Shown here piece after piece: positions 8,458-49,885 of a DNA stretch of 64,000 nucleotides. This stretch comes from an uncultured delta proteobacterium (GTDB lineage: Bacteria; Desulfobacterota; Desulfobacteria; Desulfobacterales; JAFDCJ01): NCBI GenBank assembly GCA_963769935.1, contig CAVYNY010000001.1, positions 102,471-166,470 on the forward strand. Reading direction: 5' to 3'. Both the position numbers and the translations under genes were made by a program. Under the pieces are notes generated by a model. That model was not told the origin of the DNA, searched no databases, and saw only the letters and a list, made by a program, of their open reading frames with translations. Position 1 is the stretch's first letter, and every line of letters begins with the position of its first letter.

Positions 8458-8578
8458 GGAATGTCGAATGTCGAAGGAATAATGTCGAACGAAGGAATTT
8501 TATCTATTCCATTTCTTTAAAGGCCGGAGCTAAGCGACATCCACAATTTGTCATTCGTCAATCGACATTCGACATTCC
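8458..8578 (+). repeat. Family C palindromic element with AATGTCG/CGACATT arms
   Basis: Inverted heptamer arms around GAAGGAATTTTATC...GGAGCTAAGCGACATCC. Confidence 0.8.
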
Positions 8579-9091
8579 CTATAGTCTTTCCACTATCCAA
8601 TCCTCCAAATCTTTTAGCACCTGCTCTCTTTGCGCCGGCGGTTCATTATAAATTTCATGTTACAATCCCTTATAAACGTGCAGCGTTTTGTCCGGCACTG
8701 CCAGCTTTTCAAAAAATTGCCCGGCAGCCCGCGCACTTACCAGATGATCGTCGCCGGCGACCTGCATCAGCATTGGAATTCGGATGGATGAGACCTGCTG
8801 ATTGACAGTTTCCATGGCCGCCATTAATTCGGTAAAGAAACGGGGGCTGATTCGATCATGAACCAGCGGATCGTTTATATAGGTACGGACGACATTTGGG
8901 TCGTGACTGATTTTGGCGGCATCCAGCTCGTTGCCCAGGGTGAGGCACGGCCAAATGTAAGACATGATGGATCCCAATATCTTTTTCCCGGCGGGTACTT
9001 CGATAACCATCCCCAGGGCCGGCGATGAAGCCAGTACCCCATCAATCATTTTCGGAAATCGCTGGACATAATGAAGTGCGATCAAGCCGCC
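8579..9091 (-). pseudogene. Alpha/beta hydrolase (lysophospholipase-like), 5'-truncated with internal stop
   Basis: Begins at GGLIAL just after the missing GHSM nucleophile motif; TAA at 8660-8662 replaces Tyr in GLYHE; the frame continues HEIYNEP...VERL*. Confidence 0.8.
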
Positions 9092-9247
9092 GTACCTTAA
9101 TTAACTAAACCTCACCAGTTGTCAGGGAGCAAATTACAGCCTTGAATGGACGGTTTATCAGGGCGGATTAATTTGACATTTGACTGGCTTTCTGTCAAGA
9201 GATCGGATGCCATAAAGCAGAAAGGAATGATTCTCTCAGTTAGCGCT

Positions 9248-10849
9248 ATGCATATTAAAGCCGTTTTATTCCATCTTGAAAGTTCGCTGGTTCTGCCGGA
9301 CAGTCTGGCCTTGGCAAATATCAAAGCGTCAATCGGCTGCCCGGTTGATACCGACCCCCTTGATTTTATCCGGAGTCTGAACAACGCCGAGGATAGAAGA
9401 CAAGCCCGGTCCAAACTGGCGCCTCTCGAGCTTGAAGCAGCCGCGAGCTCAAGGCCGTCGCCCGACGCCCGGGAAATTTTGCAATACCTTAATTTGAAGA
9501 ATCTGCGCCTGGGCATAGCCACCGGCGGCAGCCCGGCTCTCGTTGACAACCTGCTGCAAAAGCTGTCCCCTGTCACCGCAGCGGATTTCGATGTGGTCAT
9601 CGACCGCGGTGAACTCCCGGCCTATACCGCGGATACCAATGCCGTTCAGCTTGCGGCCGCAAAAATGAACGTCGCTCCCGACCAGCTTCTCGTCGTGGCG
9701 TCGGACGCGTCGGTTCTGCGGGAGGCCCGGAAATCAGGAGCGGTATCGGTCTATTTTAACCGATCGACAGCGTCCGGGACAATACGTTCCGAAAGTGCCT
9801 ATCAGATATCACAGTTAAGGGAACTCAAACAGATCGTGCGCCTGGGCATCCCCCTGCCCGCCGGCAAACTGCCGAATGATCTATTACGCGAGTTCTTGAA
9901 CCAGTTTGAATTCGATGATCCTTCGATTCTCATCAATCCGGGAATTGGTGAAGATACAGCCGCGGTGGACGTCGGACCCGAGGAGGTACTGGTGCTCAAA
10001 TCGGACCCCATTACCTTTGCTACGGATTCCATCGGCCAATATGCCGTGCTGATCAATGCCAATGATATTGCGACCTCAGGCGCCCGACCCCGCTGGCTGC
10101 TCACCACGCTGTTGTTTCCCTTCGGAGTCACCCCTTCTGAGATCAAGCGGGTGATCGACGAGCTCAAAGAATTTTGCCGGCGCTGGGATATCACCCTGTG
10201 CGGGGGGCACACCGAAATTACGGATGCCGTTACCCGGCCGGTGGTTGCCGGAATGATGGCAGGGACGGTCGCCAGAAAGAATCTGATCGACAAACGCAAT
10301 GTGGCGCCCGGCGACAGGGTGCTGCTCACCAAGGGCGTGGCCGTCGAAGGCACGGCAATTATTGCCCGGGAGTTCGGGAGCCGTTTGGGAAAATTCGGTC
10401 TGACTGAATCGGAGATTGAAAGGTGCCGGCAGTTTTTAACCCATATCAGCATTCTTGCGGAAGCCAGGATCGCCGCAAAATCGAAGGCGACCAGCGCCAT
10501 GCATGACGTCACCGAAGGCGGGCTGGCCACGGCTCTTGAAGAATTGAGCATCGCCTCAGAAAGCCGGATCAAGATTAATACGGATACAATTCCCGTCTTT
10601 GCCGAGACCCGCAAAATCTGTCGGCTGCTGAATATTCAGCCGCTGGGTCTTATCGGCTCCGGCAGCCTTTTGATATGCTGCCGGCCAACCGGTTGTGATT
10701 CCCTGATGAAATCCCTCCGCGAGGGCGGGATCGAAGTCACCTGTATCGGTGAAGTCCTGGAAAAAGGCCAGGGTATTGCCGCTTTTGAAGACGGCCGCCA
10801 AGCGGCCTGGCCTCAATTCGAGGTCGATGAGATAACGCGGCTGTTTTAA
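9248..10849 (+). CDS. HAD-like domain fused to AIR synthase-related (PurM/HypE/ThiL fold) domain
   Basis: N-terminal HAD-like fold; GKLP, PGIGEDTA, NANDIA, GGHTE and MHDVTEGG motifs. Confidence 0.8.
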   Translation: MHIKAVLFHLESSLVLPDSLALANIKASIGCPVDTDPLDFIRSLNNAEDRRQARSKLAPLELEAAASSRPSPDAREILQYLNLKNLRLGIATGGSPALVDNLLQKLSPVTAADFDVVIDRGELPAYTADTNAVQLAAAKMNVAPDQLLVVASDASVLREARKSGAVSVYFNRSTASGTIRSESAYQISQLRELKQIVRLGIPLPAGKLPNDLLREFLNQFEFDDPSILINPGIGEDTAAVDVGPEEVLVLKSDPITFATDSIGQYAVLINANDIATSGARPRWLLTTLLFPFGVTPSEIKRVIDELKEFCRRWDITLCGGHTEITDAVTRPVVAGMMAGTVARKNLIDKRNVAPGDRVLLTKGVAVEGTAIIAREFGSRLGKFGLTESEIERCRQFLTHISILAEARIAAKSKATSAMHDVTEGGLATALEELSIASESRIKINTDTIPVFAETRKICRLLNIQPLGLIGSGSLLICCRPTGCDSLMKSLREGGIEVTCIGEVLEKGQGIAAFEDGRQAAWPQFEVDEITRLF

Positions 10850-11478
10850 TTTGCGCGGATGCCGCGTCCGAATATTTCGAAGGCAAGTTCGAGCGTTTGC
10901 TTGAGGTAGTCCTTTTCCTCGTTAATCAGCCGTTTGCTTGTCAACCAGAGCACCACGCCGGAAAACAGCGCCCAGAAAGTATCGGCCATGGCAACCGGGT
11001 GGCGATCCAGGAAAAGCCCCTGTTCGACGCCGGTTTGAAAAATCAGGGCGATGGATCCCAGCGACTTGCGCGATAAATCCTTAATCTCGTTCATAAGCTG
11101 AGGGGATAGGTTTTTCAATGTTTCACTGGACTGCAAGTGAAACATATTGATGATGATCAGCGGGTCGAACTCATAGACGTCGTACATGGCGTCCATCAAG
11201 GCCTTTAATTTTTCCTGAGGACCAGTGCCTTTTTCATCATTGACATGTTCGACACGGATGAGAAGATATTGGAGGATTCTCAGAGAAAGAGAGGCATAGA
11301 GCTCTTCTTTGTTTTTAAAATACAGGTACAGGGTTCCGGGGCTGAGTTCAGCTTCCTGGGCGATATCTTCCATGGTTGCCTTAGTGAAGCCCTTGTCGGA
11401 AAAAACCCTTTTGGCGGCAACCATTATTTGCTGTCGCCGCCGCTCCTTTTCTCTTTCTTTCCGTTCTTGGATTCCCAT
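10846..11478 (-). CDS. TetR/AcrR transcriptional regulator
   Basis: GFTKATMEDIAQEAELSPGTLYLYFKNKEEL HTH. Confidence 0.95.
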   Translation of the reverse strand: MGIQERKEREKERRRQQIMVAAKRVFSDKGFTKATMEDIAQEAELSPGTLYLYFKNKEELYASLSLRILQYLLIRVEHVNDEKGTGPQEKLKALMDAMYDVYEFDPLIIINMFHLQSSETLKNLSPQLMNEIKDLSRKSLGSIALIFQTGVEQGLFLDRHPVAMADTFWALFSGVVLWLTSKRLINEEKDYLKQTLELAFEIFGRGIRAN

Positions 11479-11700
11479 TGCTCTGAAGCTCCCTGAATAA
11501 GATTTATTTTTAATATGGATTAATATTTTATCCCATTAATTTTTACAAGAGAAATATTCAGTTTCTGATTTAAACTATAATGGCATCGAAGTTTTGTACC
11601 GGAACGGTAGAGTTTGAGGGAGCAGGATGCACGGTTGGGGGAACATGGATCAGTATTCCGGGCGGGCGCTGATCAAAATCACAAATTCCAAATAACAAAT

Positions 11701-11801
11701 CCCCGGCCCAGACCGATTTAATGTCTTAGGTAATTTAGACATCCATGCCCAAGCCAGATCAAGATAAAAGTATAAACTCAGCAAGTCGCGCCAGGGCGGG
11801 C
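11701..11801 (+). mobile_element. Family B 101-bp fixed-end element, copy 2
   Basis: CCCCGGCCCAGACCG...TCGCGCCAGGGCGGGC; interrupts a CAAAT-rich tandem repeat. Confidence 0.75.
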
Positions 11802-11883
11802 TCAAACAAATTGCAATGACCAAAATACAAAATTCCAAACGGGGACTTCATTTGTTTGGGATATCGCTTCAGATAATATGAAT

Positions 11884-11986
11884 CTGGAAGATAAGACATT
11901 ATTGGAATCTCGTGCAGCTAACAGAAACAATTCCTCATAGCGCACTCTCCAAGGCGTAGGCTACGAGCCGAAGGCCAGGGCGGGCT
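11884..11986 (+). mobile_element. Family B2 103-bp dispersed repeat, copy 1
   Basis: 97/103 identical to 35738-35840 by eye; ends GCCAGGGCGGGC like family B. Confidence 0.85.
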
Positions 11987-12061
11987 GAAACCTGACACCT
12001 GAAACCTCTAATCTTCCCACTGTCATCTGTCCTCTGACCTCCGTCATCCGTCCTCTGGATG

Positions 12062-14056
12062 CTACCCGATGGCAACCTGCAGTAAATCCTTTCTGGCACT
12101 CACATGCTGAATGGTTACCTGAATGAGGTCCTCGGGTTTAAGCTCAAGACCGCTGGACAGGGGCAAGTCGCATTCAATCATGAACTCGGTGAGCAGAATC
12201 TGGTAGTTGTATCTGCGTTTATTCAGGACAATGGCCTCCTCTTTGCGGCCGATATTCTGCTCAAGGTATTTCAGGAGCCAGTAGCGGTGCCGGCTAAATT
12301 GAATCTTGGCGACATTGCCCATCGGCACTTGCAGCATCTGGATCAGTTGGTCAATTTCTTCCGCCGTGTAAGGCTGCTCTAAATCGAGCAGCGCCCTTAG
12401 CTGTCGCTGGGTAATCAGATCAAAATATTTCCGGATGGGAGAAGTTGCCGTCACGTAGGCTTCCAGCCCGAGTCCCGAATGCTTGCCCGGCCGGTGGTCC
12501 AGGACAAAACGATTTAAGTGTCTGCGCTGCATCCAATTCTGATACAGGGTTCCATCATCACCCTTGTAAAGACGCTCGCGGGGGTCCGGCTGCGATCGGA
12601 AAATTGCCGGCATACCGCTTTCAGCGAGATATTTTGCCATCAGCCAGTTGGCCAGAATCATGAGTTCTGCAACCAGCATTCGACCGGGGCTCTCCCGGTT
12701 GATTCTATTCACGGTGATGGATCGATCTTCTGCCAGCCAGACATTGATTTCAGGTACCGTAATTTGGACGGCACCGGATTCCAATCGCTGACGACGGAAT
12801 TTTTCCGCAATTTCGCGCAGAATGAGTACGTCATGGTTTTGATCAGCTGTCAGATTGACGTCATAATAGGTGAGCTGGTTTTTGACGCTGATCATACTGG
12901 GCAGGATCTCATAATCAATTATCCCCATTGAAGGGCTCAGGTTTACCATTGTACTGATGGCCGGACGCAGCTCACCGGCCTTCAGGCTGCACAATCCCTC
13001 GGCCAGGAGGGCCGGCAGCATGGATATTTTTTGGTCCGGCATATAGATGGAACTGCCGCGGGAGAGTGCTTCCCGGTCGATGCAGTCCCCTTTGTGAACA
13101 AAACGACCGACATCAATGATGTGAATGCCGAGTCGATATTGCTCGCCCACCTTCTCGATGCTGAGGGCATCATCGAAATCCAGCGTAGATTGCCCGTCGA
13201 TCGTCATCAGAGACAGTGAAGTCAGATCATGGCGCACCGCATCCCTATCGCAGGCGGAATGGGAAGCGGCAGTTTTTTGCACGCTGTTCTGGATCTCATC
13301 CGGAAAGTCGGTTGAAATCTCCAGTCGCAGCAGATCCAGATTCTCGTTGTCGTCAAAAACATTCAGTTTGACCAGCAGCGGAAACAGCCCGGTTGCCCGC
13401 TCTAATCCTGCCTTGCTGATCATCGCCTTGGCCAAGGCTTCGTGCGGGCTCTCATTTTCAAACAGATAAAAGGATCTGAGAGCCTCAACAAATATTTGAA
13501 TGTCTTGCTCGTTCACATCGGCCGGCGGGGCGGCCTCGGTGAGCAGACATTTCATCCATTCCGCTCCGCGTTCGATAATCTGGCTGCGGCGCGCTTCCTC
13601 CTCCCGCTGGGCATGCAGCCGCTCTACCTGTTGGACTGAATTGGGAAAAAAACGATCCAAGTTGAATTTAAAATACAGCCTGTCATCAAAAAACGCCCGT
13701 AAAACCGCCGACTCATGATCTGCGCCGGGATTATCGGGAAAACAAAACTCGGTCATGGTCTCCAGATCGATCCACACCTGCTCCGTATTCAAAACTTCCC
13801 ACAGGTCCTTTATATCGACCTCGTTGAGTAAAGCTTTGCGTTTGTTGGCAACCTCCTTGAGGGCATCGACAATTTTATCCCGGCCCATGGAGATATTCAG
13901 ACGTGCATCATCCTTGTGCAGGAGCCGCCCCGGCGAAAGTTTGACCTCGCGATTATTTTCGGTCAACAATCGCAATCGATGGTTCTTGACTTCCAAAACG
14001 ACTGCACACAGGATTCTCTGACGATCGATGTATTCAACTATACTTCCTGATTCCAT
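12062..14056 (-). CDS. RNB-domain exoribonuclease (RNase II/R family)
   Basis: TIDGQSTLDFDDALS, ELMILAN and TSPIRKYFDL motifs. Confidence 0.9.
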   Translation of the reverse strand: MESGSIVEYIDRQRILCAVVLEVKNHRLRLLTENNREVKLSPGRLLHKDDARLNISMGRDKIVDALKEVANKRKALLNEVDIKDLWEVLNTEQVWIDLETMTEFCFPDNPGADHESAVLRAFFDDRLYFKFNLDRFFPNSVQQVERLHAQREEEARRSQIIERGAEWMKCLLTEAAPPADVNEQDIQIFVEALRSFYLFENESPHEALAKAMISKAGLERATGLFPLLVKLNVFDDNENLDLLRLEISTDFPDEIQNSVQKTAASHSACDRDAVRHDLTSLSLMTIDGQSTLDFDDALSIEKVGEQYRLGIHIIDVGRFVHKGDCIDREALSRGSSIYMPDQKISMLPALLAEGLCSLKAGELRPAISTMVNLSPSMGIIDYEILPSMISVKNQLTYYDVNLTADQNHDVLILREIAEKFRRQRLESGAVQITVPEINVWLAEDRSITVNRINRESPGRMLVAELMILANWLMAKYLAESGMPAIFRSQPDPRERLYKGDDGTLYQNWMQRRHLNRFVLDHRPGKHSGLGLEAYVTATSPIRKYFDLITQRQLRALLDLEQPYTAEEIDQLIQMLQVPMGNVAKIQFSRHRYWLLKYLEQNIGRKEEAIVLNKRRYNYQILLTEFMIECDLPLSSGLELKPEDLIQVTIQHVSARKDLLQVAIG

Positions 14057-14279
14057 ATGGATTACAATAACAACCGGCCCGGATAAAGTCAATGATTCCA
14101 AATCGGTTGCCGGAATCCAGTTTTTGGATGCTGGATACTGGATGCTCGATGCTGGGCTGGGTAGTTGAAGAAGAAATACTCAAGGCGCAGCGCGTTCGAT
14201 TTGCCCCCTGCCCTTTGCCCTCTGCCTTGTCCCCAAAATAGCTTGCAGATATATTTTACTGCGCTTATATTAAATAATT

Positions 14280-16053
14280 ATGCCCGAATACCAGCAATCA
14301 GCAGTATCCCTCATAAAACCTTATTTTGTTGAAAACCGTTTGAAGATTCTCACCGGACTGCTCAGCCTGATCATCGTTGATGTGCTCCAGCTCATTATTC
14401 CCCGCATTATAAAATGGGCGGTCGACGATCTGACGGGCTTCAGGATCGATGTCTGGCGTCTGCTGTCTTATGCCCTTTACATGGTAGGGCTCGCCCTTTT
14501 TATCGGTGCCTTCCGCTATGTCTGGCGGCGCTGTCTCCTGGGAACTTCAAGAAGAATCGAAGAGGGGTTGCGCAACGCGCTTTTCGCCCATCTGCAGAAC
14601 TTGCCGGCATGCTATTTCGATGGCGTCCGAACCGGTGACCTGATGGCCCACGCCACCAATGATATCCAACAGATCCGGATGGCGGCCGGCATGGGAATGG
14701 TGGCTTTAAACGACGCCATCGTTCTGGGAACGGCTGCCATCGGCTTCATGGCTTATATCAATATCAAACTGACAGCCTTTGTCCTGATCCCCATGCCGCT
14801 GATCGTCGTCAGTACCCGTTTTTTCAGCAAAAAAATGCACCGCCGGTATCAGGCGGTTCAAGCCGCTTTTTCCGAACTCACCGAAGTAATCCGGGAGCGC
14901 TTTGCCGGTATCCGCATCATCAAAGCCCATCACCGTAAAAAAGAAGAAGCGATCCGGGTGGAATCCGTCTCCAAAGATTACATTAACGAAAATATCCGCC
15001 TGGTGAAAATTACCGGTATTTTTTTCCCGTTGACGGTGCTGTTTTCAAATTTAAGCCTGGCCATTGTGCTTTACCTCGGCGGCCGCCAAACCATTATGCA
15101 GATCATTACGCCGGGGGATTTTGTCGCGTTTATCAGCTATCTGGGGTTGCTGACCTGGCCCATGATGGCGCTGGGGTGGGTGACGAACCTCATTCAGCGG
15201 GGACGGGCGTCTTTGGACCGTATCGACAAAATTCTGCAAACTGTGCCCGCCGTCAGGGACCGCCAAGACGCCCTAGGCCTCGACCGCACGGACGGCCATA
15301 TCATTTTTGAAAATGTTTTCTTTAACTACGATACCGCACAGAATTCCGCCATGCCGCCGACCCTCAGGGCAATTGATTTGTCCATCGAACCGGGTAAGGT
15401 GCTGGGTATCGTCGGTCCACCCGGCAGCGGCAAATCGACGCTCATCAGCCTCATTCCGAGACTCTATGACGTCCAACGGGGCAGGATCCTGCTCGACGGA
15501 AATGATATTCGGGACCTGAAAATAAAGGATTTAAGATCGCAAATTGCCTATATTCCCCAGGAACCGTTTCTGTTTGCCGGAACCATCCGGGAGAACATTG
15601 CCTTCACCAACGGGCAGCCGGCCGATGAGCGGCTTGAACAGGTCTGTCCGCGCTGCGGCCCTGTATGATACAATCAATCAGTTCCCGGCCGGTTTTGATA
15701 CCGTCGTCGGAGAAAGAGGGATTGTTCTCTCCGGCGGCCAAAAACAGCGCATCGCCCTGGCGCGTTGTCTGCTGAAAGATGCCGGCATCCTGATACTGGA
15801 TGATCCCATCAGCCAGGTTGATCTGGAAACCGGAACCGCCATCATCCGGAACATCCGAAAAATGGCGGGACAAAAAACCATTATCATTGTCTCCCACCGG
15901 CTTTCCGCCGTCAGTTATGCCGACCGCATCATCTCTCTCGATCTGGGCCGCATCGTGGAATCAGGCACCCACCGGCAGTTAATGGCAGCGAACAATTATT
16001 ATGCCAAAACGTTCGACCTGCAGGAAATAGAAGAGGAATGGGATGCAGCCTGA
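14280..16053 (+). CDS. ABC exporter subunit A (TMD+NBD), frameshifted near 15645
   Basis: Walker A GPPGSGKS in one frame; LSGGQKQR and ILILDD in another. Confidence 0.85.
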
Positions 16054-18067: not shown

Positions 18068-18197
18068 CTTGACATCCTGTCAGGCATTGATTTCACCGAT
18101 TTGGCCGGTCAGAATCACGTGGGCTCAACCAGCATTGGCTAACAGAACAACGCAATAATCTGACATTCACTAATCAATTTAAAAGGAGGATTCGACT

Positions 18198-19961: not shown

Positions 19962-19984
19962 TAATTACAGGCGTTAAAAAAGAA

Positions 19985-20020: not shown

Positions 20021-20027
20021 ATTAATT

Positions 20028-20244
20028 CACAAATTCCAAGCACCAAATTACAAATAAATTCCAAATTCAAATAAACAATGACCAAAACAGCTCCGGTTTT
20101 TTAGTAGAATGTAGTTCATGCAAGAAGGCTCAGCGATTAATCTAAATTGGAGAACGCTTATTTTAAGATTTTAGGCCTGTTTGGAATTTTGAATTTCGGT
20201 CATTGGATTTTATTTGTGATTTGGTGCTTGTGATTTGGAATTTG
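20028..20244. repeat. Palindromic element with CAAATTC/GAATTTG-type heptamer arms and unique core
   Basis: CAAATTCCAAGCACCAAATTAC... mirrored by ...GTGATTTGGTGCTTGTGATTTGGAATTTG. Confidence 0.8.
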
Positions 20245-20278: not shown

Positions 20279-21868
20279 ATGCGTGTTCTCCTGATAAATC
20301 CCTTCTATCCCATTTCCGAAACCCCTTCCCCTCCCCTGGGCCTGGCCTATCTGGCGGCGGCGTTGTCTGAAGCGGGCATTGAGGTTAAGGTTCTGGACCT
20401 GGTTGTATTTCCATACAGCCAATCCCTGCTGCAAAATGTGTTGGAGCAATTCCAACCCCGGATTGCCGGTCTGACCGCGGTCAGTATGACCTTTAATTTT
20501 GCCATTGACGTCATCAGGGACATCAAACATCTTTGTCCGGATATTCTAACGGTTATGGGTGGGCCGCATGTATCATTTTGCGCGCAGGAAACCATGCTGC
20601 AATTTCCCGATCTGGATTTTGTTGTGCTGGGCGAAGGGGAGCAAACCGTAGTCGAATTGGCCCGGGCCATCGACAACGGCCGCCGCTGGGAAGGGGTAAA
20701 GGGAATTGCCTATCGAAGCGGCGCTGACATTCACTGCACCCCCGCGCGCGAGCTGATTGCCGATCTGGACACGCTGCCGGTCCCGGCTCGTAATCTGCTG
20801 CCGCTGGGACGTTATCGAGCGCTTGGAATGCCCGTCAGCCTGACCACCAGCCGCGGCTGCCCGTTTAAATGCATATTTTGCATCGGACGCAAAATGGTGG
20901 GCTCCCGGGTTCGCTACCGCAGCCCCGGCAAGGTCGTTGATGAAATGGAATATCTGAGCGGACTGCATTTCCATCAGATCAATATCGCCGACGATCTGTT
21001 TACCGCCAATAAAAGCCACTGTCTGGGTGTGTGCGATGAAATTATCAAACGGCGCCTGAAGCTCACCTGGACATCTTTTGCGCGGGTCGATACCGTATCG
21101 GAAGAAATTTTGACGCGCATGCAAGCGGCCGGGTGCAGCGCGGTCAGCTTCGGGGTCGAGTCGGGCAATCCGCAAATTCTTAAAACCATAAAAAAAGGCA
21201 TTACGCGCGAGCAGGTTGTGGCTGCGGTAAACATGTGCCGCCGCGCCGGCATTACACCGTTTGCTTCCTTTATCCTTGGCCTGCCGGGTGAAACGCCCCA
21301 AACCATTCAAGAAACCCTGGACTTCGGCGAACAGCTGAAAAATCTGGGGTTGTCATTCGGGTTTCACCTGCTGGCCCCCTTCCCCGGGACGGAGATTCGT
21401 ACCGACCGCCATCGATATGGTATTAAAATCCTAACCGATGACTGGTCGCAATACCACGCCAACCGGGCCATTGTAGAAACAGCGTCGGTCGATCGCCAAA
21501 TGCTGGATCAAATTGTGATCACCTGGGAAAATGAATTCAATCAACTGCTGGCGGATATCAAGCAGCGCATGCAAAAAGCCGAAGCCTCGGCCGAGGAAGC
21601 ACATCAGTTGATCAATCTGGAGCGCATCGTCCTGGTCTACGACCTGATGATGAAAAACGCTATTGAACAAAAAGGCGATTGGCCCAATGACGGCCGTCCG
21701 ATGAAACCCGAAGACAACCTCAGAACTCTCTGTGACAGAATCGGCTCCATGGTCCCTGCGGACCCGCAATCGCTGCAGGACACCCTGGAGCATGCCCTGC
21801 AGAAAGGCAATTTAAAATGTTCCGAGGTAAATGGAAAGATTCGGTGGCAGTGGGTGGACTATATTTGA
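20279..21868 (+). CDS. B12-binding radical SAM protein
   Basis: PPLGLAYLAA, GGPH, SRGCPFKCIFC and GVESG motifs. Confidence 0.92.
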   Translation: MRVLLINPFYPISETPSPPLGLAYLAAALSEAGIEVKVLDLVVFPYSQSLLQNVLEQFQPRIAGLTAVSMTFNFAIDVIRDIKHLCPDILTVMGGPHVSFCAQETMLQFPDLDFVVLGEGEQTVVELARAIDNGRRWEGVKGIAYRSGADIHCTPARELIADLDTLPVPARNLLPLGRYRALGMPVSLTTSRGCPFKCIFCIGRKMVGSRVRYRSPGKVVDEMEYLSGLHFHQINIADDLFTANKSHCLGVCDEIIKRRLKLTWTSFARVDTVSEEILTRMQAAGCSAVSFGVESGNPQILKTIKKGITREQVVAAVNMCRRAGITPFASFILGLPGETPQTIQETLDFGEQLKNLGLSFGFHLLAPFPGTEIRTDRHRYGIKILTDDWSQYHANRAIVETASVDRQMLDQIVITWENEFNQLLADIKQRMQKAEASAEEAHQLINLERIVLVYDLMMKNAIEQKGDWPNDGRPMKPEDNLRTLCDRIGSMVPADPQSLQDTLEHALQKGNLKCSEVNGKIRWQWVDYI

Positions 21869-22035
21869 ATGAATATTGAAGATTGAAAATTGAATAATTA
21901 AGCCGCTGATATTCTTATTTTGCAAGGTGGAGTAGCTGAGGAATTCTGTCTTTTATAGTTTTGTATTTACCTTTTCCCATTTAGGTGGAAAATATAAAAC
22001 AGATAGGATGCCACAAATATTCAAGCTTCAATTCA
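21867..22035 (+). repeat. Family C palindromic element with ATTGAAG/TTCAAT arms
   Basis: Core GGAATTCTGTC...ATGCCACAAATATTCAA, shared with 37346 in reverse. Confidence 0.75.
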
Positions 22036-24896: not shown

Positions 24897-24979
24897 TTTT
24901 CCGGTTGGCCGGTTGGCCCGTTTGCCGGTTCGCTTCAACTCTACCAGGCCAACGGGTCAACGGGCCAACGGCCAACCGA
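24897..24979. repeat. Palindrome with CCGGTTGG/CCAACGGG octamer arms
   Basis: Same arm type as 30298-30401. Confidence 0.75.
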
Positions 24980-24980
24980 A

Positions 24981-26147: not shown

Positions 26148-26780
26148 ATGCAGGAACTGATCAGAACAAAGGACATCCCCACCCAGGTGAAAGACCCTGA
26201 TCTGGTTAAACGCCGGCGCCGCCAAATTGCTGCGGCGGCGGTTCAGCTGTTCATAGAAAAAGGCTTTCATAAAACCACCACCCGGCAAATTGCGCGCACA
26301 TCCGGCTTTTCCATCGGCTCTTTGTATGAATACTTCGCCTCCAAAGAAGATATTCTTTATATGGTGTGTGAATCAATTCATGCCGAAGTAGAACTCGGTG
26401 TCACGGAAGCAATGTCACGCACCACAGGCGGCCGGGCAACCCTGGCAGGGGTTATTCGGGAATATTTCATGGTTTGCCACCGCATGAGTGATTTTATTTT
26501 GCTGATTTACCAGGAGAGTCAGTCTCTGCCTCCCCAATGGCAAAAAAGAGTACTTGAAAACGAGCTTCGAATTACCGGCCTGTTCGTGGAAGTGCTGGCC
26601 CGCCTCGCGGCATCAGGTGAATTGCCGGGCCTCAAGGAAGAGTATCTGGAACTGACAGCTCACAATATCGTGGTTTTAGGGCACATGTGGACCTTCAGGC
26701 GCTGGTACCTGTCCCGGCACTATAGTTTGGAAGACTATATCAGACTTCAAACCAATTTTATCTTGAAAAAGATCCTGTAG
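26148..26780 (+). CDS. TetR-family regulator of the acyl-CoA cluster
   Basis: KGFHKTTTRQIA..SGFSIGSLYEYF.SKEDIL HTH; precedes icmF. Confidence 0.92.
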   Translation: MQELIRTKDIPTQVKDPDLVKRRRRQIAAAAVQLFIEKGFHKTTTRQIARTSGFSIGSLYEYFASKEDILYMVCESIHAEVELGVTEAMSRTTGGRATLAGVIREYFMVCHRMSDFILLIYQESQSLPPQWQKRVLENELRITGLFVEVLARLAASGELPGLKEEYLELTAHNIVVLGHMWTFRRWYLSRHYSLEDYIRLQTNFILKKIL

Positions 26781-26850
26781 ATCCTCTTTTCAAAAGAAGC
26801 GAACGAACTTAACGCACTTTTTATTGCATCAAGGAAAACTGTAAGGAAGA

Positions 26851-27007
26851 AAATGACAAAGGACGAATGACGATCGGCGACCGATGGAAGTCGCTCCTCC
26901 TTTTTCTATTATTACCCTCAATAGAATAAGGACAAAATAATCTCATTATTCGATCGTAATACCTTAGTAGACATTCATCATTCGACAATCGCCATTCGTC
27001 ATTCCCA
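26851..27007 (-). repeat. Family C palindromic element with AATGACG/CGTCATT arms
   Basis: Minus-strand GGAGCGACTTCC core with inverted heptamer arms. Confidence 0.7.
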
Positions 27008-30297: not shown

Positions 30298-30401
30298 AAG
30301 GTTGGCCGGTTGGCCCGTGTGCCTGTGTGCCTGTGTACCGGTTGGCCGTAACGGCTCAAGGAGCTCGACGGGCTAACCGGCCAACGGGCTAACGGGCTAA
30401 C
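30298..30401. repeat. Palindrome with octamer arms (GGTTGGCC / CTAACGGG)
   Basis: Inverted degenerate octamer arrays. Confidence 0.75.
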
Positions 30402-31601: not shown

Positions 31602-31635
31602 ACTCTGAGTCGGGTTTAGGGGTTTCAGGTGTCAG

Positions 31636-31803
31636 CCCAGCCGCCGGCCAAAACAACGGCCGGTCTGACCGAAAAAGAAACATAATAGTTCACCGCAGAG
31701 CCCGCCGAGAACGCCGAGAAAGAAAAGTTAAATTAATCTCTGCGCTCTCAGCGGTGAGACACTTCGTAAAAATGGCATCGAATTTAAGGAAGTTTCATAT
31801 GAG
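31636..31803 (+). mobile_element. Family A GTCAG-targeted element with about 110-nt cargo
   Basis: Left 33 nt identical to 56841; right end AGTTTCATATGAG; lies within GGT(G/T)TCA heptamers. Confidence 0.8.
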
Positions 31804-32050
31804 GTGTCAGCCAAGTCTCTGGCTGCCCGAGGAGTCTGCTTTAATCGAAGCACTAATTCTTAAGGCTCCACAAGAATTTCAAAGAAGGTAACTCAGGCAA
31901 TTTTGATTGTGAGAGCGGTTTTTAACCGTGAAAAACCCGGATTTACATATACCGATAATCATGGCTGCAAGCCGCGCAACCAGAAACCTGAAACCTGAAA
32001 CCTGGAACCTGAAACCTGAAACCTAATAATCATAAAAACAGGAGGAACTA

Positions 32051-32902: not shown

Positions 32903-33106
32903 AAATGTAAAATGCCTAAAATGAGCTAAAATGCCTAAAATTATGGTGTCGTTGCGCTCCGTCTTCTTTTAATAGGGCGATATCTGTCGCCTGGAAAATC
33001 GCAAATCATTAAAAAAACACTTTAACGGATCTCGTGTTTTTACTTAATTAAAAAGACGGAATTCCTTAACTTTAGGCATCTTAGGCATTTTTATTTTTAG
33101 GCAATT
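32903..33106 (-). repeat. Family C palindromic element with AAAATGCCT/AGGCATTTT arms
   Basis: Minus-strand core AAGGAATTCCGTC...GACGGAGCGCAACGACACC. Confidence 0.8.
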
Positions 33107-33678: not shown

Positions 33679-33936
33679 AATGCCTAAATTGTCTAAAATG
33701 CCTAAAATTTCGGGCTCATGGCCGTCTGAAAACCCATGGAGTGATGGAGCGATGGAGGAATGGAATATGGGGCATCAAAAGCGGATGATGGTCTATTTTT
33801 ATTTTCCGCCTTGTACCATTCATATAAAAACAGATCTAATTCCACCAATCACAATACTCCGACACTCCATTACTCCAATACTCCATCCCGCTGCGGAAAA
33901 TTTCAGTCGATTTAGTCATTTAAAATTTTAGGCATT
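33679..33936. repeat. Nested palindromic repeat element
   Basis: Outer TGCCTAAAA/TTTTAGGCA arms; inner TGGAGNRA/TACTCCA arms at 33736-33886. Confidence 0.8.
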
Positions 33937-33953
33937 TCGCGAGGGAGCGCCTT

Positions 33954-35296: not shown

Positions 35297-35662
35297 ATGA
35301 GAGAATTTAGCGTAATAATAGAAAAAGATGAAGATGGTTTCTTTGTTGCGTCTGTCCCGGCACTGCGAGGTTGTCATACTCAAGCAAAATCTCTTGATAC
35401 ATTGATGAAGAGAATTAAGGGCTCACTCAAAAATAACTTCACATTTTATACGCCGCTGCATCCCGTCTGGCTGCGTTGCGAAAGCTCGGAATATCCAGAT
35501 ATTCCTGCGTTTTCGCGCCTTGCCAGCCGGGCGCCGCAACGCCTAAAATTGTGAACTAATTTTTTCGTGAACCCTAAGGAGGCTATTGAACTCTGCCTTG
35601 AGGTCGAAAAACCGATCTCCAACGAATTTATCGGGGTACAGAAAGTGGCGGTCAACTCATGA
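35297..35662 (+). pseudogene. hicB: HicB-like antitoxin interrupted by a MITE
   Basis: Removing the element and one TAA gives ...VPALRGCHTQA...MKRIKEAIELCLEVE...VNS*. Confidence 0.85.
35419..35574. mobile_element. 156-bp MITE with about 33-bp imperfect TIRs and TAA target duplication
   Basis: GGGCTCACTCAAAAATAACTTCACA versus revcomp GGGTTCACGAAAAAATTAGTTCACA; TAA at 35416-18 and 35575-77. Confidence 0.88.
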
Positions 35663-37345: not shown

Positions 37346-37488
37346 GATTGAAGATTGTAAATTGAAGATTGAATATTTGTGGCATGCTGTCTATTTTATT
37401 TTCGCCACCGATATTAAAAAGCAATATCATAAATTAAAACGACAGAATTCCTTTATTATTCAATTTTCAATCTTCAATATTCATTCCC
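37346..37488 (-). repeat. Family C palindromic element with ATTGAAG arms
   Basis: Minus-strand AAGGAATTCTGTC...ATGCCACAAATATTCAA. Confidence 0.8.
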
Positions 37489-40423: not shown

Positions 40424-40537
40424 TACGGAGTTCTCCCTCCCTTATTGTGCCCCACGTCGCCCTTGCTGATGCGTCCATTAGTATTCTCTTTTTTCTATCC
40501 CCATGCAGAGTCAAACAGGTTTATGCAATGTTAGCGG

Positions 40538-40930
40538 TCACTTTACCGTAATGACCGGACAATGCGCCTTTAGTATAACGAATTGGGCCGTGGAGCCGAG
40601 CAGCATTTTCTGGGTCTTGGACTTTTTTTCAATGCCGACGAACAGTTGATCGACCTCATTTTCTTTGGCAAATTCGACGATATCTTCGCCGGGCGCCAAT
40701 CCCCTGGCAAGCTGGTGGGTTTCACATTCAATCTTTTCTTCGGCCAGGAATTTTTCCGCGTATAACAGATCTTCTTCGGCCTTTTTGATTTCCTCCAATT
40801 TTTCGGCAGTCCCCCCGCCCATGGAAGTCATGACCAGGACCTTGGCATTAAAAATTTTAGCAAAATGCCTGGCCAGCGCCAGAGCGGATCTTGCTACTTT
40901 CGAACCGTTGTATGCGACTAAAAACTTCAT
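40538..40930 (-). CDS. Universal stress protein
   Basis: LVAYNGS...LLGSTAQFVILKAHCPV. Confidence 0.9.
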   Translation of the reverse strand: MKFLVAYNGSKVARSALALARHFAKIFNAKVLVMTSMGGGTAEKLEEIKKAEEDLLYAEKFLAEEKIECETHQLARGLAPGEDIVEFAKENEVDQLFVGIEKKSKTQKMLLGSTAQFVILKAHCPVITVK

Positions 40931-40964
40931 GGCCCAACTCCTTTCCCGGCGGCTTTGAAATTTG

Positions 40965-41786: not shown

Positions 41787-41869
41787 TGTGATTTGTTTTA
41801 TATTTGCAATTGGCGAATCTTTGTGTTGGTTTGAAGCCGGGCAGCGGCCATCCGCTGCCCGGCCGCGGT

Positions 41870-43096: not shown

Positions 43097-43148
43097 TTTA
43101 CCCTTCCTTTCCCTTTTGGTTTTCAGGTTAGCTATACACGAGGCCCAA

Positions 43149-44243: not shown

Positions 44244-44246
44244 AAC

Positions 44247-45140
44247 TTACACCCGCTCTATTTCATGGATCCCGAATAGGCCATGGGGCTTGAACAATAA
44301 GATAATCAACAGGATAATGTAGGGCAGAAGTTCTGCTGTGCCGTGCAGGCCCCAGTTGCCGTCCAGATAGCCGGCGGCAAACTGCTGGATCAACCCCATG
44401 ATAATCCCTGCCACCACCGCGCCGAAAACTGAATCCAACCCGCCGAGAATGACGACGGGGAACACGATGATTCCAAAGGAGTTCAGCACGTCAAAATTTA
44501 ACCCCGTAATATTGCCGATAATGCTTCCGGCGGCGGCGGCGCTGAATCCCGCGGTGGCCCAGGCCAGGCCGAAGACTCTGGGAATCGAAATGCCGATGGA
44601 CATGGAAGCCATTTGATCGTCGGACACGGCCCGCATCGAAATGCCCAGGGTGGATTTTTTAAAAAACCAGGAAAAACCCGCAATCAGGATGATCGTGGTA
44701 ATAACGCCCACCAGCTGGGTCCAGGAAATTGAAACTTCGCCGATGGTTACCGGTGTCTTGGGCAGGAATTCCGGAAAGGAGAAGTTATCCGAGCCGAAAG
44801 GGCTCAGATAAATAAGCCCGTCCAGGATCGACATCAGGCCGATGGTAACCATAATGACGGATATGATCGGCTCACCGATCAAGCGGCGCAGAAAAATACG
44901 CTCCACGCTCATGGCCAGCAGAAAAGTCAGTATCAGACTGATGAAGAAGGCAAAATAAATCGGTATTCCCACCCACGCTGTCAGCGTATAGGTTATAAAA
45001 GCCCCGCTGGCGATGAGCTGTCCGTGGGCAAGGTTCAACACCCGGCTGGATTTGTAGATGAGGACAAATCCAAGACCCGACAGCGCATAGATTGATCCAA
45101 CGACGATGCCGCTGACCACCAGTTGAAAAAAATAGCTCAT
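44247..45140 (-). CDS. ABC permease, LivH-like
   Basis: GSIYAL..LGFVLIYK...LNLAHG and VILGGLDS motifs. Confidence 0.9.
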   Translation of the reverse strand: MSYFFQLVVSGIVVGSIYALSGLGFVLIYKSSRVLNLAHGQLIASGAFITYTLTAWVGIPIYFAFFISLILTFLLAMSVERIFLRRLIGEPIISVIMVTIGLMSILDGLIYLSPFGSDNFSFPEFLPKTPVTIGEVSISWTQLVGVITTIILIAGFSWFFKKSTLGISMRAVSDDQMASMSIGISIPRVFGLAWATAGFSAAAAGSIIGNITGLNFDVLNSFGIIVFPVVILGGLDSVFGAVVAGIIMGLIQQFAAGYLDGNWGLHGTAELLPYIILLIILLFKPHGLFGIHEIERV

Positions 45141-47065
45141 GCCGCCTCTTCCATGGTATAAAACCGTAAAGTTGTTTCCACTCTGGCTGTTTGCCCGTCC
45201 TGGTATTGATAAAACGCCTGCACGCTTTTTTCACTGACACTTTCGTCGTAAAGCGCTTCATAAAGATCGGCATATTTTTCCAGGAGAAATTTGCGGCGTA
45301 TTTTGCCGGTTTTGGTCAACTCCCCGTCATCGACATCGAGCAGCTTGTACAAAATGGCAAAGCGTCGGATTCTGAAATGCTCCTTTTCGACGCTTTGATT
45401 GAATTTTGTGACCTGGCTTTTGATCAGCTCGGCCACCTTCTGTTGCTGGGAAAGATCCATAAATGTGGTAAACGAAATGCCGCGGTCTTCGGCCCATTTT
45501 CCGACCACAATCGGATCGATGTTGATCAGGGCGGCGACGAATTCGCGCTGGTTGCCGAATATCACGGCTTCTTTGATATAGGGGCTGAATTTCAACTTAT
45601 TTTCCAGAAACATGGGGCTGAACATATCCCCCTTGCTGGTATGCATCACGTCTGAAAGCCGATCGATCACCACCAGATGACCGTTTTCATCAATATAGCC
45701 GGCATCGCCCGAGTGCAGCCAGCCGTCGGCCAGCAGCTCCTCCGTCTCGGCGGGCAATTTATAGTAGCCCTGGGCTACCGATGGAGAGCGGGAAAGAATT
45801 TCGCCCGCTTCCGATATTTTGCATTCCGTCCCGGGCAGCGGAACGCCGACCGTATCCGGTCGGACGTCTCCGTCGCTGTGCATATAGGCAATGCCTGTAA
45901 TTTCCGTCTGGCCGTAAATCTGCTTCAGATTAACCCCCATGGCCTGATAAAAAGTGAACAGGTCCGGACCCAGGGCGGCACCCCCCGTGTAAGCCCGGCG
46001 CAGCCGCAGCATTCCGATCTGGTTAATCAAGGGCAAAAACACCAGGGTTTTGCCCAGCCAGGCCTTGGCACGAAGGGCAAAGGGCATTTTTTTGCCGGAC
46101 ATGCGATAAAGGGCCGCCTGTTCGCCGATTTTCGTAAAGTATTCATAGAGGCGCCGGTTCAGCCAGTATGACTCATCGATCTTGAGCCATATCTGGGATC
46201 GCAGGGTTTCATAAATGCGGGGCGCGCCGAACATGAAATGAGGTCCGATTTCCTGCAAATCATCCATGGCCGTCTCGACGGACTCCGGAAAATTGATGGT
46301 AATTCCCGTTGCCAGCGCAACCCCGAATGAATTCATCTGCTCCCCGATCCAGGCAAACGGCAGAAAGGAAACATATTCATCCGTTTCTTCCAGCGGATCG
46401 ACTTTGGTCAGCTGAACCCCCATGTTGATGTAGTTGCGGTGGGAGAGCGTCGCCCCTTTGGGCAGACCGGTGGTGCCCGAAGTCAGGCAAAAATGACAGA
46501 TCTGATCCGGATGACCCTGGTCGACCAGCTTTTCAAAGCGCTGCGGGTCCTCCTGATGGACCCGCTCACCGATTTCGTAAAGATCCTCAATGAGCATGAA
46601 CCAGTCGTCGGATTGGTAGCCGCGCATGCCGCGGGGATCTTCATACAATACTTTTTTGACTTTTGGAATTCGTTCTCTGACCTCGACCAGTTTATCGACC
46701 TGCTCCTGATCGTCGCAAAACACAATGCTCACATCCAGGTAGTTTAAGACAGCGGCAATCTCATCGGGCAGGCTGGTTTGGTACAGCCCGGCGGAAATGC
46801 CGCCGACCGCATGGGTTCCGATCGCCACAATCAGCATTTCCGGAATGTTATCGGTAATCAGCGCCAGTTTGTCGTCCGGTTGCAAACCTATTTTTTCGAG
46901 TCCCAGTGCGGTCTTGCGGACGTGATCATAATAATCCCGCCAGGTTAAGTTGTTCCAGCGGCCGAAATCTTTTTCGCGCAGCGCGACTTTATCGCCGGAG
47001 TGCTGCACGCGCCAGCGCAGCAGCTGGGGGATGGTAAATTCCAATAGACGATCTTTGTTTTCCAT
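45137..47065 (-). CDS. Long-chain acyl-CoA synthetase-like AMP-binding protein
   Basis: TSGTTGLPKG, YGQTE, HSGDAG and ELTKTGKIRR motifs. Confidence 0.92.
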   Translation of the reverse strand: MENKDRLLEFTIPQLLRWRVQHSGDKVALREKDFGRWNNLTWRDYYDHVRKTALGLEKIGLQPDDKLALITDNIPEMLIVAIGTHAVGGISAGLYQTSLPDEIAAVLNYLDVSIVFCDDQEQVDKLVEVRERIPKVKKVLYEDPRGMRGYQSDDWFMLIEDLYEIGERVHQEDPQRFEKLVDQGHPDQICHFCLTSGTTGLPKGATLSHRNYINMGVQLTKVDPLEETDEYVSFLPFAWIGEQMNSFGVALATGITINFPESVETAMDDLQEIGPHFMFGAPRIYETLRSQIWLKIDESYWLNRRLYEYFTKIGEQAALYRMSGKKMPFALRAKAWLGKTLVFLPLINQIGMLRLRRAYTGGAALGPDLFTFYQAMGVNLKQIYGQTEITGIAYMHSDGDVRPDTVGVPLPGTECKISEAGEILSRSPSVAQGYYKLPAETEELLADGWLHSGDAGYIDENGHLVVIDRLSDVMHTSKGDMFSPMFLENKLKFSPYIKEAVIFGNQREFVAALINIDPIVVGKWAEDRGISFTTFMDLSQQQKVAELIKSQVTKFNQSVEKEHFRIRRFAILYKLLDVDDGELTKTGKIRRKFLLEKYADLYEALYDESVSEKSVQAFYQYQDGQTARVETTLRFYTMEEAA

Positions 47066-47071
47066 GTCGGA

Positions 47072-47836
47072 TCAATCTTCTCCGATATAAGCCTCGATGA
47101 CTTTCGGATCTTGGGCCACGTCGGCGGGTTTTCCGCCTCCGATCAGCTCGCCGAAATCCAGCACGTAGACCCGGTCGGATATGTCCATGACCACCCCCAG
47201 ATCATGCTCAACCAGGACGACGGTAATATGGCGTTCCTGCTGAATGTCCATGACAAAACGCACCATATCCTCTTTTTCTTCAATATTCATCCCCGCCATG
47301 GGTTCGTCGAGCAGAAGAATTTGCGGCCCCAATGTAAGGGCCCGTGCCACTTCAACCCGCTTCTGAACGCCGTAGCTGAGATTGCCCACCAATTTTTTGC
47401 GATACGGTTCCAGTTCCATGAAGTCGATGACATCTTCCACATACTGGCGATTGTTGGCCTCCTGGCGGGAGGCCTGGCCGAAGTAGAAGACCGCCTGCAG
47501 CAGATTATATTTCAGGTTTTGGTGCCGGGCCAGCAACAGGTTGTCCAGGACCGTCATTCCGCCGAACAACTCAATATTCTGAAAAGCCCGCGCAATCCCC
47601 AGGCTGGATACCTGGTGGGGCGATGCCTTGTTGAGTTTATGGTCTCCGTAGTAAATATCGCCGGACGTCGGGTGATAAAATCCGGAAATACAATTCAACA
47701 TGCTCGTCTTGCCGGCGCCGTTGGGACCGATAATGGAGGTAATCAGGCCCGGCTGGATATCCAGACTGACACCGGACAGCGCATTCAATCCGCCGAATGA
47801 CAGGGTTATATTAGATATGGCTAGTTTGTTGTTCAT
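47072..47836 (-). CDS. ABC ATP-binding protein, LivG-like
   Basis: GPNGAGKT, LSYGVQKRVE and DEPMAGM motifs. Confidence 0.92.
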   Translation of the reverse strand: MNNKLAISNITLSFGGLNALSGVSLDIQPGLITSIIGPNGAGKTSMLNCISGFYHPTSGDIYYGDHKLNKASPHQVSSLGIARAFQNIELFGGMTVLDNLLLARHQNLKYNLLQAVFYFGQASRQEANNRQYVEDVIDFMELEPYRKKLVGNLSYGVQKRVEVARALTLGPQILLLDEPMAGMNIEEKEDMVRFVMDIQQERHITVVLVEHDLGVVMDISDRVYVLDFGELIGGGKPADVAQDPKVIEAYIGED

Positions 47837-48158
47837 CACAGCCGGAGATGCTAAAATACAAAAAAGGCCTGCAATAGTAGACCTTTTTAATCTAAGGTTT
47901 CTTGTTCGGTTTGGCTTCGGACTGAGGCATTAACACGCGTTTAGTCGCTTTTTTGGTCATAAATTTGTCGACCCCACCTCCCCACGCCGCTGCAGGATTC
48001 GAACGTCCATGCAAAACTTAAGGCCATATCCGATTTCAGCATAAATTATGAATTGCATTCATTTCATGGAACGCTACCTATCGGATATGAACTCCTTAGT
48101 CAAGTAAATAAAAAATGTCAAGTTGATAAGATAGTGGTAAAATAGTGGTTAATACCCA

Positions 48159-49755
48159 CTACGAATCATAAGATAAAAGGTGAGATCTGAGATTAATTTT
48201 TTTATTTTTCAACCCGAGTTTATGCCGGATATTGTAACGGTGAAACAATACAGTATTCTTGGAAATATAGAGTATCCCTGATATTTCCTTATTGGTTTTG
48301 CCCTCTTTAACAAGATTGGCAACCCGCACTTCCATGGGCGTCAGATTGAAATAGCGGGAGGAAAGCTTGCTGATAAACGGTGATATCATGTTGCTTAAAT
48401 TCGAATCGAGGATGTTGATCAGCGTTTTTTGATGGGTATTTAAGCGGCTGTTTTTCAGCCTGTCGAGGTACGGTGAGACCAATTCCCTTACATTGGACAA
48501 AACGTTGTCACCCAGCTCCTTTTTATCATCCTCTCTTTGTTTCAGCAGCACCTTGAGCGCGGTAATCACCTCCTCCAGATGGTGCGACTGGGCTTTCAGC
48601 TCGATTTCGCGTTTACGCAATTTTTTTTCGGCCCTTTTGCGCTCGTCGATTTCAAGTTCAAGCTGGGCATTGATCTTGGCCAGCTCGGCGGTGCGCTCTC
48701 CAACCAGTTCTTCGAGATGATCATGGTATTTTCGCAACTCGATCTCGGCTTTTTTCTGGGCGCTGATATCCCGCAGCGTAACGATGTTGCCGGCGGGCTC
48801 ACCGTTGCGGTTCGAATAAAGGGTGGAGCTTATTTGCACATCGAGCACACGCCCGTCTTTGGTTAAACGCCTGGTTTCAAAGAGGTGGATCTTCTTTCCC
48901 CGCAGCATAGTTTCGATGGCGGCATGGGTCTCCGGCCAGTTTTCCTGGGGTACGAAATCCAACTGTTTGCCGAGCAATTCGTCACTGGTATATCCAAAGG
49001 TCTGTTCAAACGCAGGGTTTACATAAGTCGCTTCACCCTGAATGTTGTAAAGAACAATGGGATCCGGCGAGGACGCCAACAGCAGGCGATAGCGCTGTTC
49101 GCTGTCTCTAAGGGTGGCCTCGGTTCGTTTTCTTTCCGCCAGCTCCCGCCGCACATCCGCATACAGCCTGGCTTTGTCCAGGGCCACCAGAGCCAGCTCG
49201 GCAAATCGGCCCAAAACAGCAATATCTTCTTCTTCAAACTGCCGCCCGGGTTTGACGGTCGCCAGTCCGATGACGCCGTGAACCCCGCTGCGATCTTTCA
49301 ATGGAATGCCCGCCACCGAATGAAGATCATCCAGTGAACTGTCGCTGAGACGCCCTTCCCATGACCGATAATCCATGACCAGCAGGGGCTGTTCCGCCTG
49401 CCACACTTTGCCGCCCATGCCCCTCGCCCTTTTTAACGCGCAATCCCAAATGGCGCTTAAAAAATCCCATACCAACCCGCATTTGCATTTCAACGTCACC
49501 GGGCTCAAGCAGATAAATGTAGCCGTGCTCGGTCCCGGTCAGCATGGCAGCCCGCTGCAATACGGCCTCCAGCAGTTCTTCCTTGTCCAGATGGTCGATC
49601 AGACCCAGGGAGGTTTCATGCAGGGCCGTCAGATATTCATTTTGCCGGCGCAGGGCTGCTTCAGCCTGTCTCGCTTCAGCAATTTCGCATTCAAGCGTCC
49701 CGGCTCTTTCCGCCATGGCCTCACCGGTCAATTTTTCGGCTTTTAAATCCAACAC
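48159..49755 (-). CDS. GAF-PAS-LuxR HTH regulator, frameshifted near 49420
   Basis: GAF split at the KKGEG G-run; PAS (VNPAFEQTFGY); LTPMEVRVANLVKEGKTNKEI LuxR HTH. Confidence 0.85.
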
Positions 49756-49765
49756 GGCTCCTTGT

Positions 49766-49885
49766 GGAATGACGAATGATCGAATCGAGCAAATAAATAA
49801 CGAAGGAATTCTATCATTTTATATTGAAATTTGATTGAAAAAGGTGGAGCGAAGCGACATCCATCGTTCGTCATTCGTCATTCCT
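49766..49885 (+). repeat. Family C palindromic element with AATGACG/CGTCATT arms
   Basis: Core GAAGGAATTCTATC...GGAGCGAAGCGACATCC. Confidence 0.8.

Follow-up and report, generated by a model that had tools for sequence, protein, structure and literature searches.

Background

Several described systems resemble the repeats considered here, and the comparisons made below draw on excerpts of the papers cited. The intervening sequences (IVSs) of 23S rRNA genes that bear an open reading frame (ORF), as in Coxiella, hold a gene of the four-helix-bundle S23p family (PF05635/TIGR02436) in the loop of a terminal stem, contain heptamer repeats and see their ORF decay by deletion (PMC4990558). REPINs are extragenic inverted doublets with a variable spacer, singlet remnants and an asymmetric behaviour, for which a single-stranded DNA (ssDNA) substrate is presumed (PMC3116915). 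In the IS91 family, the terIS end is a GTTC with a subterminal palindrome, and IS91 itself offers a position for an additional gene, orf121 (PMC13181058). Intergenic pairs of tandem 7- to 8-mers, placed on opposite strands at a variable distance, occur in Geobacter metallireducens, where the paired hepta- and octanucleotides were read as regulator sites (PMC2700814, PMC2996986), and in Beggiatoa as TAACTGA repeats (PMC4679880). The origin and movement of IVS-type four-helix cassettes, and the reason for the many heptamers found between genes, are left open in the excerpts of PMC4990558 and PMC4679880. Here we describe family C, a set of intergenic palindromes first noticed in a 64,000-nucleotide stretch of DNA (the window: positions 102,471 to 166,470 of contig CAVYNY010000001.1, assembly GCA_963769935.1) from an uncultured delta proteobacterium of the Desulfobacterales, GTDB lineage JAFDCJ01.

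A family C element consists of an arm of short tandem repeats, a core, an AT-rich middle, a second core and a second, inverted arm. We are confident that the copies are the two ends of a TIGR02436/PF05635 four-helix-bundle cassette from which the gene has been deleted, an identity that is absent from the readings proposed in the initial annotation of this DNA. How such cassettes move is a more tentative matter: the reading that we prefer, namely that family C copies are emptied four-helix cassettes moved as folded ssDNA by an HUH transposase acting in trans, has in our estimate a probability of roughly 45%.

Unlike the rRNA IVSs, family C lies between protein genes and not in an rRNA gene, has dozens of gene-less copies, and possesses a shared 12-bp core with unequal ends. 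Its arms are AT-rich and tandem, where REPINs have short GC palindromes and a tag of the GTAG type, and its full form carries a protein gene; no REP-type terminal tetranucleotide tag with a short GC palindrome was seen by eye, no systematic scan being made. It differs from a DDE-type MITE (a miniature transposable element with inverted repeats) by its systematically unequal ends and by the lack of a visible target duplication. The Geobacter and Beggiatoa repeats are not linked to a gene cassette in the excerpts of the corresponding papers. Family C thus works like a REPIN or a non-autonomous HUH element with an IVS-type gene, and does not qualify as a REP/RAYT system, an attC site, a MITE or an rRNA IVS. 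The literature covered, from which most subscription journals are missing, holds no paper in which these arms are connected with IS91 or, outside rRNA, with four-helix cassettes.

Shells and full cassettes at orthologous sites

The source genome, an 8-Mb assembly of 41 contigs that is 97% complete, has seven PF05635 genes, each of which shows, by eye, short tandem-repeat flanks. On contig C13 one of them, which is intact and matches TIGR02436, has family C arms and cores around it. The full forms (loci L007 and L022) read arm, core, gene, core, arm, and the closest structure for the protein of the L022 relative is 2RLD. In these two loci the ORF lies within terminal inverted repeats, as in an rRNA IVS, while the six window copies have no ORF. 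The suggestion of the initial annotation that longer versions might enclose small ORFs is therefore borne out, the ORFs found in full cassettes being of the four-helix-bundle type. In the four-helix gene tree, one branch has 46 genes, of which 24 are flanked by the core, and the other has 47, of which 2 are, as counted on a quick tree from which short, duplicate and five near-identical rows were dropped.

Orthologous spacers form a series: full cassette, fragment, shell, single arm and, at its end, an empty spacer. Between tetR and icmF, the 18 genomes of the genus have the full gene (5), a fragment (4, one of them ended by the end of a contig), a shell (5), a residue (2) or nothing (2), and family C arms are lacking in five genomes from other genera that have this gene pair. 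On the host tree the full copies fall in three clades, beside shells, and the empty genome G014 is nested among filled ones. In the window itself, this spacer retains the 3' remnant of a four-helix-bundle gene (26771..26874, + strand), which is fused to the end of tetR and provides its stop codon; aligned with the 3' end of the four-helix gene of locus L148, the remnant shows 76% identity in 110 columns (E 8e-17). At the site of the last palindrome (49766), three of the 11 relatives that share the gene pair (G002, G009 and G004) have a four-helix gene, in the order left arm, gene, then a shell matching that of the window, and a deletion between the two direct left-arm copies would give the window state. 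An intact gene is thus enclosed in relatives at two of the six window sites. No gene was found in relatives at 8458, 21867 or 32903, and the orthologues of 37346, inspected by eye, are shells only. At 8458, the 13 relatives that share the gene pair have a family C shell (7), abutting genes (2), or short residues or other palindromes (4). The palindromes had been thought to interrupt otherwise tight operons; this holds for tetR-icmF, which is tight in G014, and fails for hbd-xre, where all 16 same-genus relatives carry an inverted tandem-repeat element in the spacer, with about five unit types among them.

The six palindromes of the window

All six palindromes of the initial annotation, with their cores and arm units, were recovered where it had placed them. 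Shell 1 (8456..8579) lies between convergent genes and has AATGTCG arms, a core A at 8493-8504 (+) and a hairpin-type core B at 8527-8538. Shell 2 (21866..22035), between convergent radical-SAM and HDOD genes, has ATTGAAG arms, a core A at 21939-21950 and a decayed reverse core at 22002-22013; about 37 additional bases separate arm and core, which corrects the layout first given for this copy. Shell 3 (26851..27006), between tetR and icmF, has AATGACG arms, a decayed B half at 26885-26899 and a decayed core A at about 26952-26965 (-). Shell 4 (32903..33105), between hbd and xre, has AAAATGCCT arms, core B at 32948-32959 (-) and core A at 33055-33066 (-); its middle is common to the orthologues L053 and L056 and to a copy on contig C17 (z 6.4, a biased value since these were chosen from the top BLAST matches). 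Shell 5 (37346..37487), 3' of a periplasmic-binding-protein gene, has ATTGAAG arms, a decayed core at 37380-37391 and core A at 37441-37452 (-). Shell 6 (49765..49885) has AATGACG arms, core A at 49804-49815 (+) and core B at 49847-49858, within which the GCGAAGC noted in the initial annotation is found at 49849-49855.

When both strands of the copies at 8458, 37346 and 49766 were folded, z ranged from -3.7 to -4.9 and none of 200 shuffles was equally stable; the same copies also fold as RNA. An Rfam scan left the family C elements unmatched, the sole match in the window being the transfer-messenger RNA (tmRNA).

Core, ends and arms

The core pattern W-GG-W-ATTC-Y-R-TC has 91 exact matches in the genome, where about 20 are expected, and a periodic arm lies upstream of 64 of them, against 2.6% of random sites. 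Cores and arms are therefore linked, and the idea that cores might occur independently of arms at background frequency, which was to count against the family, does not hold. The core had been described as asymmetric, with two different sides. There are not two distinct cores, both sides being one imperfect inverted repeat: ATGCCACAAATAT corresponds to the reverse complement of the A core in a decayed state, and a hairpin of about 10 nt inserted in the A core accounts for the GGAGCGAAGCGAC side (the B form). The asymmetry itself is real and resides in the ends, AA-GG on one side and GT-GG on the other. Among 57 pairs in the genome, AA-GG is paired with GT-GG in 31, AA with AA and GT with GT in none, and one end is decayed in the remaining 26; the base preceding GG agrees in 7% of A-A pairs, compared to 43% after shuffling. 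The unequal ends imply that the stem carries a fixed 2-base mismatch that differs between the strands.

An imperfect hairpin with a fixed, strand-specific mismatch is also what an attC-like integron recombination site would show, and the initial annotation had drawn this likeness. Paired R boxes (RYYYAAC / GTTRRRY) are present in 0 of the 57 elements, none of the 18 matches to the integron integrase TIGR02249 exceeds the cut-off, and there are no cassette arrays, which makes such an assignment scarcely credible.

A GNA hairpin loop occurs in 39 of 60 arm-linked motifs and in 17 of 209 unlinked ones, with all four bases found at N; in the second hairpin type it is seen in 16 of 23. GCGNAGC is an unusually stable DNA hairpin, the RNA counterpart cited in the excerpt being much less stable (PMC13037366).

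Of 46 classifiable pairs, 43 have two arms of one class and three have arms of mismatched classes. Within the commonest class (n = 34), an arm matched its own partner no better than the arms of other copies, and no co-evolution of arms was found at the level of the locus. The statement that structure, and not arm sequence, is conserved is accordingly unsupported: the core is conserved in its sequence, and within the commonest class partner arms resemble each other no more than strangers do. The arms had been presented as different tandem units; as we read their sequences, the 7-mers appear to be related, as variants of a single unit with A(A/T)TG in it. That they are interchangeable on a shared core was right, different arm types being seen with the same core at the same site. 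The proposal that a core inserts repeatedly at the centre of existing palindromes is unneeded, as full cassettes have arm and core on both sides of the gene. One full cassette (L137, in G003) has mismatched arms, of the GAACATC type on the left and of the AAAATGCCT type on the right, which suggests recombination between subfamilies.

Distribution and placement

A heuristic half-site scan of the genome returned 292 halves, among which 58 pairs face inward with their cores 33-532 nt apart; after one false long pair was dropped, the family amounts to at least 57 paired elements. Per genome, the core count is 6-215 across 23 genomes of the genus, against 0-10 for a reversed control. A search of GTDB with the half-site pattern gave 31 loci, two of them in metagenome-assembled genomes of Gammaproteobacteria and the other 29 titled Desulfobacterales, Olavius Delta 1, Desulfobacteraceae, Desulfosarcina, Desulfovibrionaceae or delta proteobacterium. 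Short shells of about 110 nt are 88-89% alike at six or more loci. That these shells are a recently amplified MITE was considered and mostly rejected, a systematic test of the middles having given one real match in 300. Four other long inner segments (240-375 nt) that were inspected held nested repeats and no recognisable gene.

According to heuristic gene calls, none of the 57 elements lies within a gene, 41 are in spacers between co-directional genes, and divergent spacers are avoided (1 of 57, versus a background of 18%; p 1.6e-4). Half of the arm ends (62 of 124) fall within -12 to +8 nt of a stop codon. The order of A and B along the transcript is unbiased (12 vs 9).

This location 3' of genes would suit static regulatory sites, either terminators or binding sites, in pairs, for a global regulator, and similar paired repeats of Geobacter were read in the latter way (in the excerpt of PMC2700814). 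Orthologous spacers, however, may be full, empty or in between, and even close strains differ in this; the same element is not always present, and with 57 pairs and spacers that differ among relatives the family is dispersed and not static, as first supposed. Most elements separate co-directional genes, the gene cargo is left unexplained, only one of the four copies in the scanned region gave a terminator-like match, such matches being at the level of shuffled sequence (21 vs 22.9), and no GC hairpin with a U tract is conserved at a site. This explanation is largely refuted and retains a very small probability.

Evidence for movement

One clade of four-helix genes occupies five unrelated sites, and the four-helix genes of the tetR-icmF spacer do not form one clade (approximately unbiased test, p 0.025, a modest value). 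At the C13 site, the eight relatives compared comprise one full cassette, shells with GAATGAC and with AAAATGCCT arms, a collapsed shell, a single arm, two empty spacers and one contig that ended early, so that three arm types are met across eight genomes. Comparison of strains was made from contigs only, joints with short sides being ignored. In sequencing runs X4 and X5, which belong to one study, contigs join across the whole C13 cassette of about 500 nt, which X1 contains; the flanks in X4 and X5 are about 99% identical (2 differences in 219 nt, 8 in 583). X12, a relative of about 91%, likewise joins across the cassette. At the empty junction, 2-4 bases separate the stop codon from the next start. 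Comparisons of empty and filled sites, where the element boundaries are blurred, revealed no target duplication. In X2, another close strain, one heptamer is missing at 26993.

A new occupation of such clean junctions (2-8 nt) is not readily explained by recombination between repeats. It bears on the possibility that there is no dedicated motor at all, and that cassettes spread slowly by arm and core recombination together with gene transfer, are lost by palindrome-driven deletion, and persist as shells that are neutral or mildly useful in mRNA processing or stability. The mostly unique middles, the absence of young dispersed copies, the three pairs with mismatched arm classes, the heptamer lost in X2 and the reuse of the same sites all accord with this. 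On the other hand, both arms change class together, and unlike ends are strictly paired; we regard a spread of this kind as improbable, though far less so than static sites.

A sister element of the IS91 family

Genome G007 contains six near-identical copies, at different sites, of an element (L116-L121) whose left end is sharp and which holds an arm, a four-helix gene and a transposase of the IS91 family. Four of these could be traced to the right arm and a sharp right end, and lack half of the transposase. The transposase matches NF033538, and the complete layout is arm, four-helix gene, tnpA, arm, the arms being inverted and of the GGAATAAT type. In 80 metagenome loci of this transposase clade (L300-L379), a four-helix gene is present in 43 of the 47 with at least 500 nt upstream and in 60 of the 80 overall, compared to none of 30 distant IS91 loci. 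Both genes are intact at 12 loci; an example is the 2,176-nt element at L304:1231-3406.

As in IS91, IS801 and IS1294, the transposase of this sister element is accompanied by a terIS-like GTTC end and a subterminal palindrome, its left end showing GAAC/GTTC and a GAGCGNAGCGA motif, and the four-helix gene occupies the position of IS91 orf121 (PMC13181058, in part). Its ori flank is AT-rich (consensus TAAATT, 44 junctions), unlike the known GTTC/CTTG targets of IS91. Family C differs from the IS91 family in having neither a transposase nor defined ori and ter ends, the latter being present in part in the sister element. At least two junctions of the sister element lie in family C middles (L117, L312), and deleted derivatives of it are present in the source genome. 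Core A was at first suspected of being a conserved part of the sister cassette, and was rejected as such: it scores 10.6 in 6 of 20 left ends and at most 4.1 in the others. A small palindromic module, CCTCCGGC-CCTACG, is found in L116-L121, in L197 and at many places of G000, inserted in arms, core B, four-helix genes and transposase genes; a deletion between two copies of this module truncates the sister transposase.

How might the cassettes move?

In the reading that we prefer, the cassette would move as a folded single strand, cut and pasted just behind stop codons, with an IS91/IS200-like HUH transposase acting in trans. Strand-specific recognition would rely on the unequal ends, the GNA mini-hairpin and the fixed mismatch of 2 bases as its marks, and where different arm types use the same junction, the cassette would have inserted anew or recombined through the shared core. 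The gene may disappear through a deletion, either within the loop or from one left-arm copy to a second one in direct orientation. An HUH motor of this kind is no more secure than the statement as a whole, at somewhat under even odds, and it is inferred, the sister element having neither the core nor the arms of family C. The folded ssDNA substrate, REP- or attC-like, that the initial annotation had put forward is thus supported in part, by the asymmetry and the GNA hairpin; the attC features are not there, and at the 11 Y1 loci no family C arms were found within about 1.5 kb of a RAYT-like gene.

Several observations weigh against this reading. No transposase was found in or beside family C elements, and the 11 Y1 and 2 Y2 loci of the genome are without family C arms; in the 41 Y1/Y2 transposase loci checked, no family C arms were found, apart from scattered core-like matches. 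Sister arms (GGAATAAT) differ from family C arms, core A is not conserved in the sister element, and the sister four-helix gene falls in the other branch of the tree; the two share only the layout and GAGCGNAGCGA, which is also found in unrelated contexts. Neither sharp nucleotide ends nor a conserved target tetranucleotide was found for family C. Apart from one segmental duplication, there are no dispersed copies that are at least 95% identical, and hence no recent burst. When 27 middles were compared in 300 tests, a single real match emerged; the mostly unique middles are those expected for fused leftovers of leader and trailer. The strain-level difference at C13 fits gain as well as loss. 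The arms themselves contain stop codons, which inflates the stop-distance statistic, and the bias towards stop codons and transcription is equally compatible with selection or with a route through RNA.

In that last route, RNase III would excise the stem from an operon transcript, the four-helix pentamer would attach to the RNA as well as to a reverse transcriptase of the host, and the cDNA would integrate at gene junctions. Avd of diversity-generating retroelements, which binds RNA and reverse transcriptase, provides an analogy for the pentamer. Divergent spacers are avoided and stop codons hugged, the elements fold as RNA, and the genome has 10 reverse-transcriptase matches; moreover, the Coxiella IVS, with heptamers and the same gene family, is excised by RNase III (PMC4990558, in part). 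The GNA triloops, however, favour DNA, the A/B order along the transcript is unbiased, and the only autonomous relative found has an HUH transposase. We consider movement via RNA unlikely, if slightly less so than a spread with no motor.

Other repeats and oddities in the window

Besides family C, a GGTTTCA-armed element with nested repeats (31603-32033) lies between thiolase and hbd; it is absent in the near-identical strain X2 and in X5, and about 50 long matches to its inner part occur genome-wide. A 163-bp palindromic element (35416-35578), of which many copies 87-99% identical occur genome-wide, belongs to a young MITE-like family and interrupts a gene that we take, from its appearance, to be HicB-like. 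Other families of inverted tandem repeats occupy the same kind of position at 20030-20237, 24900-24980, 30301-30400, 33680-33937 and 57552-57820; their types are AAATTCC, GGCCCGTT, AAAATGCCT enclosing GGAGTAAT, and CACAGAT. The tmRNA (56277-56632) is followed by a repeated palindrome (56631-56794), possibly an integration scar. Two features may be assembly errors: a hydrolase ORF (8580-9085) that stops early, with 141 aa against about 290 in relatives, and an ABC transporter (14280-16053) that appears split.

Significance

Hundreds of gene-less repeats in one genus can now be tied to the life cycle of a cassette, with an empty allele at the level of the strain. New in this picture are the series of decay states, that empty allele, the asymmetry of the ends, and an IS91-family element in which arm, four-helix gene, transposase and arm follow one another. 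A practical consequence concerns annotation: such paired repeats should not be taken for regulator sites or small proteins. As a concrete candidate enzyme with intact copies is at hand, the question of mobility becomes testable. A wider proposal, which is doubtful at present, is that heptamer-armed four-helix cassettes, their shells and the rRNA IVSs are a non-autonomous class of an HUH rolling-circle system, of which the IS91 lineage carrying a four-helix gene would be an autonomous member; the four-helix protein would assist ssDNA transposition as an accessory factor, and the GNA mini-hairpins and unequal ends would form the recognition code. If true, it would explain the origin of the IVSs and the excess of intergenic heptamer repeats.

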